From a phage, in sequence record EF517038.1: a stretch of 541 bases of DNA; one strand, written 5' to 3'. A program made the position numbers and the translations under genes. Positions within the stretch are counted from its first letter, which is position 1; the number at the start of each line of letters is the position of its first letter. Shown in pieces: positions 1 to 541 of the stretch. The notes under the pieces were generated by a model. It saw nothing but the letters and a program-made list of their open reading frames with translations. It had not been told where the DNA came from and did no database searches.

Positions 1-292
1 TACTGTGGAGGCAGGACGAGATGAGATGGCTGTAGGCTCTCACGCTAAGGATTACAATCACAACTCTATCGGCGTCTGCCTTGTTGGTGGTATCGACGAT
101 AAAGGTAAGTTCGACGCTAACTTTACGCCAGCCCAAATGCAATCCCTTCGCTCACTGCTTGTCACACTGCTGGCTAAGTACGAAGGCGCTGTGCTTCGCG
201 CCCATCATGAGGTGGCGCCGAAGGCTTGCCCTTCGTTCGACCTTAAGCGTTGGTGGGAGAAGAACGAACTGATCACTTCTGACCGTGGATAA
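1..292 (+). CDS. 3.5: T7-type lysozyme / N-acetylmuramoyl-L-alanine amidase (Amidase_2/PGRP fold, also the T7 RNA polymerase inhibitor), C-terminal part; 5' end lies upstream of the window
   Basis: Reading frame starts at position 2 (act gtg gag gca... = T V E A G R D E M A V G S H A K D Y N H N S I G V C L V G G I D D K G K F D A N F T P A Q M Q S L R S L L V T L L A K Y E G A V L R A H H E V A P K A C P S F D L K R W W E K N E L I T S D R G), ending at TAA 290-292. The frame is open back to the window edge, so the Met at 5-7 in the ORF track is internal, not the true start. The translation matches the C-terminal ~96 residues of T7 gene 3.5 lysozyme as I recall it almost residue for residue, including the RAHHEVAPKACPSF segment that carries the zinc-ligand His and Cys and the catalytic Lys of the amidase. 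Confidence 0.95.
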   Translation, partial: TVEAGRDEMAVGSHAKDYNHNSIGVCLVGGIDDKGKFDANFTPAQMQSLRSLLVTLLAKYEGAVLRAHHEVAPKACPSFDLKRWWEKNELITSDRG

Positions 293-293
293 T

Positions 294-316
294 TAATTGA
301 ACTCACTAAAGGGAGA
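294..316 (+). promoter_or_regulatory. T7 RNA polymerase promoter, class II type (phi3.8); predicted +1 is G311
   Basis: TAATTGAACTCACTAAAGGGAGA at 294-316 aligns with the 23-nt T7 promoter consensus TAATACGACTCACTATAGGGAGA (-17 to +6). It matches at 19 of 23 positions, with mismatches at -13, -12, -11 and -2; the conserved CTCACT core and the GGGAGA initiation region are intact. It sits in the right place and orientation to drive the downstream gene, and the whole 294-323 stretch agrees with my memory of the T7 phi3.8 promoter. Confidence 0.9.
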
Positions 317-339
317 CCACAGCGATTTCCCTTTGTTCG
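298..339 (+). promoter_or_regulatory. Candidate RNA hairpin in read-through transcripts, possibly the RNase III processing site (R3.8) known in this T7 intergenic region
   Basis: Hand-folded: upper stem 308-316 (AAAGGGAGA) pairs with 326-334 (TTTCCCTTT), 9 bp including one G-U, with a 9-nt loop at 317-325. A lower stem 298-302 (TGAAC) pairs with 335-339 (GTTCG), 5 bp including one G-U, separated from the upper stem by a 5-nt bulge at 303-307. T7 is known to have an RNase III site between phi3.8 and gene 3.8. Folding energy was not computed. Confidence 0.4.
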
Positions 340-343
340 CATT

Positions 344-348
344 GGAGG
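344..348 (+). promoter_or_regulatory. Shine-Dalgarno ribosome-binding site for the downstream HNH endonuclease gene
   Basis: GGAGG at 344-348, followed by a 7-nt spacer (TCAAATA) and then ATG at 356-358. Core SD sequence at optimal spacing. Confidence 0.75.
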
Positions 349-355
349 TCAAATA

Positions 356-541
356 ATGCGCAAGTCTTATAAACAATTCTATAAGGCTCCGAGGAGGCAT
401 ATCCAAGTGTGGGAGGCAGCCAATGGGCCTATACCAAAAGGTTATTATATAGATCACATTGACGGCAATCCACTCAACGACGCCTTAGACAATCTCCGTC
501 TGACTCTCCCAAAAGAAAACTCATGGAACATGAAGACTCCA
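356..541 (+). CDS. 3.8: HNH endonuclease (HNH_3-type, T7 gp3.8-like), N-terminal 62 codons; 3' end lies beyond the window
   Basis: ATG at 356 preceded by the SD at 344-348; the frame is open to the window end (position 541 completes a codon). Translation: MRKSYKQFYKAPRRHIQVWEAANGPIPKGYYIDHIDGNPLNDALDNLRLTLPKENSWNMKTP. The segment Y-I-D-H-I-D-G-N-x2-N-D-x2-D-N-L-R-L-x-L-x2-E-N is the characteristic HNH_3 signature (catalytic His34, Asn38, Asn46, then E-N). Position immediately downstream of lysozyme and the phi3.8 promoter matches T7 gene 3.8. Absent from the ORF track only because there is no in-window stop. Confidence 0.9.
   Translation, partial: MRKSYKQFYKAPRRHIQVWEAANGPIPKGYYIDHIDGNPLNDALDNLRLTLPKENSWNMKTP

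Follow-up and report, generated by a model that had tools for sequence, protein, structure and literature searches.

The canonical RNase III sites of phage T7 (R0.3, R0.5, R1.1, R1.3, R4.7 and R18.5) share their folded architecture with R3.8: the upper stem measures ~10-12 bp, the target site holds an irregularity, a lower helix follows, and a single cut is made in the 3′ strand directly beneath the upper stem. R3.8 has reportedly been on the T7 map since the work of Dunn & Studier in 1983. The R3.8 cleavage site was placed just 3′ of the start of promoter phi3.8 (PMC6938266, citing Dunn & Studier 1983), and the strong RNase III sites include R3.8 (bioRxiv 10.1101/106799, citing the same work). 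The site is also annotated in two relatives. T3 record NC_003298 carries a 27-nt 'RNase III recognition site R3.8' at 10616-10642, which overlaps 'T3 promoter phi3.8', and phiYeO3-12 record NC_001271 likewise annotates a 28-nt stem-loop at 11350-11377 as RNase III site R3.8. The GenBank T7 records V01146, NC_001604, AY264774 and PP384393, as displayed, give the promoter and no RNase III features, and the same holds for R1.1. As for the enzyme, E. coli RNase III accommodates about 22 bp of helix (PMC3867540, PMC1540722, PMC6212723), a bulge or loop at the target site confines cleavage to one strand, and RNA is stabilised by the hairpin left at its 3′ end (PMC3867540), and deletion or substitution of the distal box weakens both binding and reactivity (PMC3867540, PMC1540722).

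The stretch of DNA analysed here (the window; 541 nt, EF517038.1) matches phage T7 10870-11410 over its full length with 98.9% identity, and no better match was present in the phage collection. It holds the 3′ part of gene 3.5, ending at a TAA stop codon at 290-292, and the 5′ part of gene 3.8; the partial proteins match Pfam Amidase_2 (E 7e-9) and HNH_3 (E 2e-15), respectively. The features of the window are as follows.

5-292, plus strand: 3′ part of gene 3.5 (T7 lysozyme / N-acetylmuramoyl-L-alanine amidase); ORF list, T7 annotation and Pfam.
294-316, plus strand: class II T7 RNA polymerase promoter phi3.8 (-17 to +6), TAATTGAACTCACTAAAGGGAGA; GenBank V01146/NC_001604 and promoter comparison.
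298-302, plus strand: proposed 5′ arm of the lower stem, TGAAC (promoter positions -13 to -9); complementary to 335-339.
303-307, plus strand: bulge of 5 nt, TCACT, between the 5′ arms of the two stems; fold.
308-318, plus strand: AAAGGGAGACC, 5′ arm of the upper stem, at -3 to +8 of the promoter; folds and covariation.
319-323, plus strand: hairpin loop, ACAGC; folds and comparison with promoters and relatives.
324-334, plus strand: 3′ arm of the upper stem, GATTTCCCTTT; T7 alignment, stability and alignment column.
334-335, plus strand: expected RNase III scissile bond between U334 and G335; coordinate attributed to Dunn & Studier 1983, fold register and end of the T3 annotation.
335-344, plus strand: 3′ arm of the lower stem, GTTCG (335-339), bulged C340 and outer extension ATTG (341-344); folds.
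338-360, plus strand: competing hairpin CGCAUUG/UAAUGCG (338-344/354-360); pairing probability and energy.
356-541, plus strand: 5′ part of gene 3.8 (HNH endonuclease); T7 annotation and Pfam.

The hairpin at 298-339 lies between gene 3.5 and gene 3.8 and overlaps phi3.8, which is the orthologous position of the annotated sites, and we assign it to R3.8, the RNase III processing signal of T7 within phi3.8, with a probability of about 0.88. The preliminary description had placed a known RNase III site in this intergenic region of T7; that site is the documented R3.8, as given by the literature and by the T3 and phiYeO3-12 annotations, so that the hairpin is a rediscovery of a known element and no new candidate. 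The locus and its flanking genes, the promoter, the hairpin and the expected place of the cut are those of T7 R3.8, and the window differs by G325A in the 11-bp stem and by five private transitions elsewhere. The T3 (TAAAGGGAGACTTAACGTTTCCCTTTG) and phiYeO3-12 stem-loops align with window positions 307-335, with one loop base more in phiYeO3-12. They form a homologous structure, U AAAGGGAGAC...GUUUCCCUUU G, in the same register over phi3.8 and followed by GUUC, with a stem of 10-11 bp and the loop UUAAC. They differ in that the complementarity in the lower stem comes to only 2-3 bp, and in that the element follows the small gene 3.7 and precedes the primase gene rather than an HNH gene. A search of the window against Rfam (E <= 10) gave 0 matches.

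The position of the cut was compared among the T7 sites by folding the genome around the coordinates of ten RNase III sites, and each of these coordinates falls immediately 3′ of its upper stem. The R3.8 cut, reportedly at Dunn & Studier coordinate 11203, maps to the bond between U334 and G335 of the window (T7 11203 and 11204). The claim that cleavage falls near position 334, at the 3′ base of the upper stem, agrees with this coordinate and with the register of the other nine sites, and the T3 R3.8 stem-loop annotation ends at the G homologous to G335. This bond is the junction of the upper and lower stems, and the irregularity at the target site, the 5-nt bulge 303-307, faces it. As judged from this coordinate and its consistency with the fold, the exact scissile bond is probably that between U334 and G335. 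A literature search for the numeric coordinate 11203 and for further work on R3.8 returned nothing beyond two Wilke-lab papers, and one for a 5′-end map of T7 returned none. R3.8 also departs from the canonical sites in several respects. Its cut would lie at the base of the stem opposite a one-sided bulge, whereas in the canonical sites it lies 3 nt into a symmetric internal loop, and the 3′ arm measures 11 nt from loop to cut, compared with 13 nt. The canonical sites share CUCAAGGUC...GGCCUUUAUGAU, which R3.8 is without, and in their folds the cut falls between UAU and GAU; among the ten folded sites, this early-type consensus (CUCAAGGUC...GGCCUUUAU, then the cut and GAU) is missing from R3.8, R6.5 and R13.

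The pairing and stability of the upper stem were then evaluated. All nine pairs of the proposed stem 308-316/326-334 are present in the sequence, with 315/327 as a G-U pair, and RNAfold returned the proposed interrupted hairpin for 298-339 at -11.9 kcal/mol (z -2.7; 5 of 200 shuffles), the structure exactly as drawn in the preliminary description evaluating to -10.4 kcal/mol. On 291-350, the same hairpin was obtained together with pairing of 294-297 with 341-344 across the bulged C340. The pairing probability of the upper stem was at least 0.91 in all contexts from 60 to 442 nt. In wild-type T7, C317-G325 and C318-G324 pair as well, which gives 11 contiguous bp (12 bp if U307-G335 is counted) and a 5-nt loop; in the window the upper stem has only 9 bp because of G325A. 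Accordingly, the 29-nt hairpin of wild-type T7 reaches -16.6 kcal/mol (z -5.8), vs -9.9 kcal/mol in the window, and ranks first or second in stability among the 29-nt hairpins of the T7 genome. The loop of the window is ACAGC, where most T7-like relatives and the phi10 leader have ACAAC.

The preliminary description had made its proposal depend on a stable fold and on conservation in related phages. The hairpin is returned by folding and its upper stem is conserved in relatives, but the energy of the 76-nt fold is unremarkable (z -1.2). By energy alone the window hairpin is ordinary, since the T7 genome gives a 29-nt hairpin of -9.9 kcal/mol or lower at 97 places, or ~1.3 per 541 nt, and its significance comes from comparison with relatives. 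These figures would also suit complementarity that arose by chance, or as a by-product of the promoter, and that has no function at the RNA level, the more so as the 5′ arm is under promoter constraint anyway. Indeed, conservation of the 5′ arm alone proves nothing, because this arm spans promoter positions -3 to +8. Yet across lineages the 3′ arm, which lies outside the promoter, changes in step with the 5′ arm, the wild-type hairpin ranks first or second in the genome by stability, and strong hairpins starting near +1 occur at only 3 of the 17 T7 promoters (phi3.8, phi10 and phi17). Together with the covariation described below, which contradicts it, this makes an origin by chance very improbable.

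Relatives were gathered via the lysozyme gene and by pattern search. The module of promoter plus hairpin is kept in T7-like, T3-like and Klebsiella Przondovirus phages, and also in Rahnella phage Sarma103, Yersinia phage fPS-26 and Erwinia phage L1. When 18 distinct variants were folded singly by minimum free energy, the same hairpin was obtained in all of them, with sequence differing in places: the -2/+23 pair is A-U in the T7 and T3 types and C-G in the Klebsiella types, the +5 pair is G-U, U-G or G-C, the +6 pair is A-U, G-U or G-C, and the +7 pair is C-G or A-U. In plain MAFFT alignments, the 3′ arms of the T3 and Klebsiella types were off by one column, and these alignments were unusable for counting pairs because of this displacement. 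A covariance-model alignment was used, with 53 hits in 23 distinct rows and a stricter threshold that excludes minus-strand and paralogous hits; such an alignment leans toward the structure of its model, which was guarded against by slid-register controls and by the folds of single sequences. In this alignment (23 distinct rows), 97% of the cells of the upper helix are paired, and three pairs are changed on both sides (-2/+23, AU to and from CG; +5, GU to and from UG/GC; +7, CG to and from AU). The covariation score of the upper stem was 0.126, vs 0.048 +/- 0.009 in shuffles, none of 500 of which exceeded it, and at most 0.058 in the slid registers. RNAalifold returned the same 10 pairs from this alignment, with the upper stem only.

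The variant of L026 and L027 was missed by the covariance model and analysed by folding only; in L026 the stem is kept with one bulge. In L067, L068 and L071 the stem runs uninterrupted over 11-13 bp, with energies between -13.8 and -18.6 kcal/mol. In Yersinia phage fPS-26 and Erwinia phage L1 the -1 and -2 pairs are broken and uncompensated, and Rahnella phage Sarma103 has a natural 2x2 U-U internal loop within the upper stem. Collectively, conservation and compensatory changes argue, at the level of sequence comparison, that the upper stem functions as an RNA helix.

The gene that follows the module varies among the relatives (L008-L055), being the HNH gene 3.8, one of several unrelated small ORFs or directly the primase gene, and some phages have an additional small ORF between the lysozyme gene and the module, for example T3 gene 3.7. 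It is consistent with the data that gene 3.8 is a mobile HNH insertion just 3′ of the processing site.

The promoter that the hairpin overlaps starts at G311 of the window, which is T7 11180 (promoter feature of GenBank V01146/NC_001604). In comparison with the other 16 T7 promoters, phi3.8 departs from the T7 consensus at -13, -12, -11 and -2. The TGA at -13 to -11 (window 298-300; consensus ACG) occurs in phi3.8 alone among the 17 T7 promoters, and each of these three deviations adds to the complementarity with 337-339, a hint that RNA structure may in part have shaped the weak class II sequence of phi3.8. The A at -2 was at first also regarded as a special deviation of T7 phi3.8 and was dropped, four other class II T7 promoters having A at this position; for K11 the corresponding argument does stand (see below). 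A sigma-70 scan of the window found one promoter-like site on the minus strand, which is at chance level (1 found vs 0.4 expected); this match lies inside gene 3.8 at 405-376 (TGGATA, 18 nt, TAGAAT; 9/12).

The overlap with the promoter means that two kinds of RNA have to be considered. For transcripts starting at G311, the preliminary description had predicted a short hairpin of 6 bp, and folding confirmed it, with an isolated C318-G324 pair in addition (-5.5 kcal/mol); the phi3.8-initiated RNA of wild-type T7 forms 8 bp at -12.2 kcal/mol. The closest likeness to this RNA is the phi10 leader (the leader of pET vectors), in which +1 to +22 are almost identical, GGGAGACCACA(A/G)CGGUUUCCC, and which forms the same 8-bp hairpin on promoter-initiated RNA and, unlike R3.8, is without the GUUC lower arm; the R3.8 covariance model matches it at T7 22896-22927 with 36 bits. 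The hairpin at phi17 (T7 34554-34599) is a different one, of 14 bp, that also overlaps its promoter. The phi10 and phi17 hairpins are not known to be RNase III sites, so the presence of a hairpin alone is not diagnostic.

These likenesses bear on the possibility that the hairpin is mainly a 5′-terminal stem-loop of phi3.8 transcripts, acting in decay protection or promoter clearance, with RNase III cleavage being incidental. The near identity with the phi10 leader speaks for such a role, as do the hairpins at +1 of K11 phi9, K11 phi17 and T7 phi17, and promoter-initiated RNA contains +5 and +7, two covarying pairs out of three. However, the -3 to -1 pairs cannot form in that RNA, since these nucleotides exist only in read-through RNA, and still the pairing is contiguous through them in the T7-, T3- and Klebsiella-type elements, whereas it ends at about -1 in K11 phi9 and phi17 and is interrupted 5′ of +1 at phi10. 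Moreover, the -2 pair covaries: U stands at -2 in 12 of the 13 annotated K11 promoters, and the post-lysozyme promoter alone has C, deviating from its own consensus and matched by a G in the 3′ arm. In the K11 record NC_011043 (L085) this promoter is annotated and the conserved hairpin, ACAGGGAGAC/GUUUCCCUGU at 10908-10955, is unannotated. The contiguous pairing to -3 and the K11 C at -2 thus favour a role in processing read-through RNA over that of a purely 5′-terminal stabiliser, and the literature and the T3 and phiYeO3-12 annotations give RNase III cleavage at R3.8. Since the two roles are compatible, the 5′-terminal role competes with processing only as the sole function, and as such we consider it improbable.

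The lower stem proposed in the preliminary description (298-302/335-339) fared less well. Its five pairs are present, 298/339 being U-G, and ATTG at 341-344 can pair with 294-297, but the stem is poorly supported, with no covariation and a low probability. Its pairing probability was 0.77-0.83 in a 60-nt context and 0.06-0.14 once 354-360 were included, the fall occurring because 338-344 prefers pairing with 354-360. In the covariance-model alignment (23 distinct rows), 73% of the lower-stem cells are paired and no compensatory change was found, and the stem is absent from the RNAalifold consensus of the same alignment. The competing hairpin 338-360 has -5.5 kcal/mol and a probability of 0.6-0.98 in every context, the RNase III product included. 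The gene 3.8 Shine-Dalgarno sequence GGAGG (344-348) lies mostly within its 9-nt loop, with G344 closing the stem, and the AUG of gene 3.8 (356-358) sits in its stem. In L008, a relative that carries gene 3.8, an A at the position of 342 gives a mismatch in this hairpin; as far as sequence can tell, conservation of the competing hairpin is doubtful. The 3′ flank GUUC(G)C (335-340) is nearly invariant in the T7-, T3-, Rahnella-, Yersinia- and Erwinia-type elements, and its supposed 5′ partner at -13 to -9 varies (TGAAC, AACAC, AAGAC or ACGAC); because this partner varies, pairing in the lower stem does not explain the conservation of the flank.

With respect to mechanism, the wild-type T7 hairpin has 11 bp between the expected cut and the loop; a one-sided bulge of 5 nt faces the cut, as many as 9 pairs (5+4) follow below, and this modelled geometry would fit the established properties of E. 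coli RNase III. In the proposed sequence of events, read-through RNA from upstream T7 promoters would carry both arms of the hairpin, and host RNase III would bind a roughly two-turn helix and nick its 3′ side at or near the bond between U334 and G335, only one strand being cut because the bulge opposes the target site. The upstream RNA, which ends with gene 3.5, would retain a 3′ hairpin as a barrier to 3′ exonucleases, and the downstream 3.8-4 RNA would begin with a 5′-monophosphate at a largely unstructured end, 9 nt 5′ of the Shine-Dalgarno sequence. RNA started at G311, being without -3 to -1 and the lower arm, would have a 5′-terminal hairpin only and would escape cleavage. Against this model of R3.8, the lower helix, which a two-turn substrate needs, is predicted to be thermodynamically disfavoured in long contexts.

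In T7 RNA-seq, read coverage shows a sustained fall 3′ of R3.8 (PMC6938266), in agreement with a more rapid decay of the downstream RNA after processing. The same drop in counts, and the presence of an intergenic hairpin containing G+C, could also be expected if the hairpin terminated or paused transcription between genes 3.5 and 3.8. In the window, however, a scan found 0 terminator-like sites, no U-run follows the stem, and the U residues that are present lie within the 3′ arm; the published account has no terminators after gene 3.8 and ascribes the drop to degradation (PMC6938266). A role in termination or pausing is therefore hardly credible, and R3.8 processing remains the preferred reading of the element.

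The copy in the window differs from that of T7. Six differences from T7 were found in the alignment, at 51, 58, 272, 325, 454 and 503, all of them G:C>A:T transitions, and none of the six was seen in any close T7-like relative (above 90% identity). The substitution at 51 gives lysozyme G72D, 58 is synonymous, 272 changes V to I, 325 lies in the hairpin, 454 is synonymous, and 503 changes A to T in gp3.8. Judged from sequence, this pattern is suggestive of a T7 line that was chemically mutagenised or had evolved, or of a sequence altered on purpose. At position 325, wild-type T7 and all close T7-type relatives examined have G, and G325A creates a C317-A325 mismatch at the 10th pair from the base of the stem, the sole CA cell in the +7 column, at a cost in stability of ~6.7 kcal/mol. 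What is left in the window is 9 bp, the C-A mismatch and 1 bp, C318-G324 (P 0.56), above a lower helix with the low probability in long contexts given above. No match to the exact G325A hairpin was found in the viral and metagenome contig collections.

On modelling grounds, G325A may lower RNase III cleavage, since the pair that it removes falls in the predicted distal box, ~10 bp away from the cut, and the window copy may be poorly cut because its 9 contiguous bp are fewer than the minimum of ~11 bp. In the extreme case, the site of the window would be crippled, with the distal-box pair disrupted, the read-through RNA uncut and the hairpin a relic of R3.8. The mismatch being private to the window, the missing matches in the contig collections, the loss of stability from -16.6 to -9.9 kcal/mol and the reported effect of distal-box changes on RNase III binding and reactivity (PMC3867540, PMC1540722) would all agree with this. 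On the other side, nine contiguous pairs are left, C318-G324 forms about half the time, and the 2x2 U-U loop of Sarma103 implies that some irregularity is tolerated in nature, so that a crippled site, while possible, is the less probable outcome. More tentative still, and in our view rather doubtful, is the idea that G325A represents a distal-box knock-down allele of R3.8 in a mutagenised or evolved T7 line. Only this private, stem-weakening substitution and the mutagenesis-like pattern of the other five changes are unusual here; the rest is ordinary.

Across Teseptimavirus, Teetrevirus and Przondovirus, a role of the element in processing receives comparative support from upper-stem covariation, which takes in pairs 5′ of +1 that only read-through RNA can form. 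Users who take the EF517038.1 stretch as 'T7' should know that a substitution at its predicted distal box weakens the stem. If the substitution does act as a knock-down of R3.8, comparison of this variant with wild type would test R3.8 cleavage as the cause of the drop in class II transcripts after gene 3.8, and would also test whether the promoter-overlapping design gives read-through and promoter-initiated 3.8-4 mRNAs different lifetimes.
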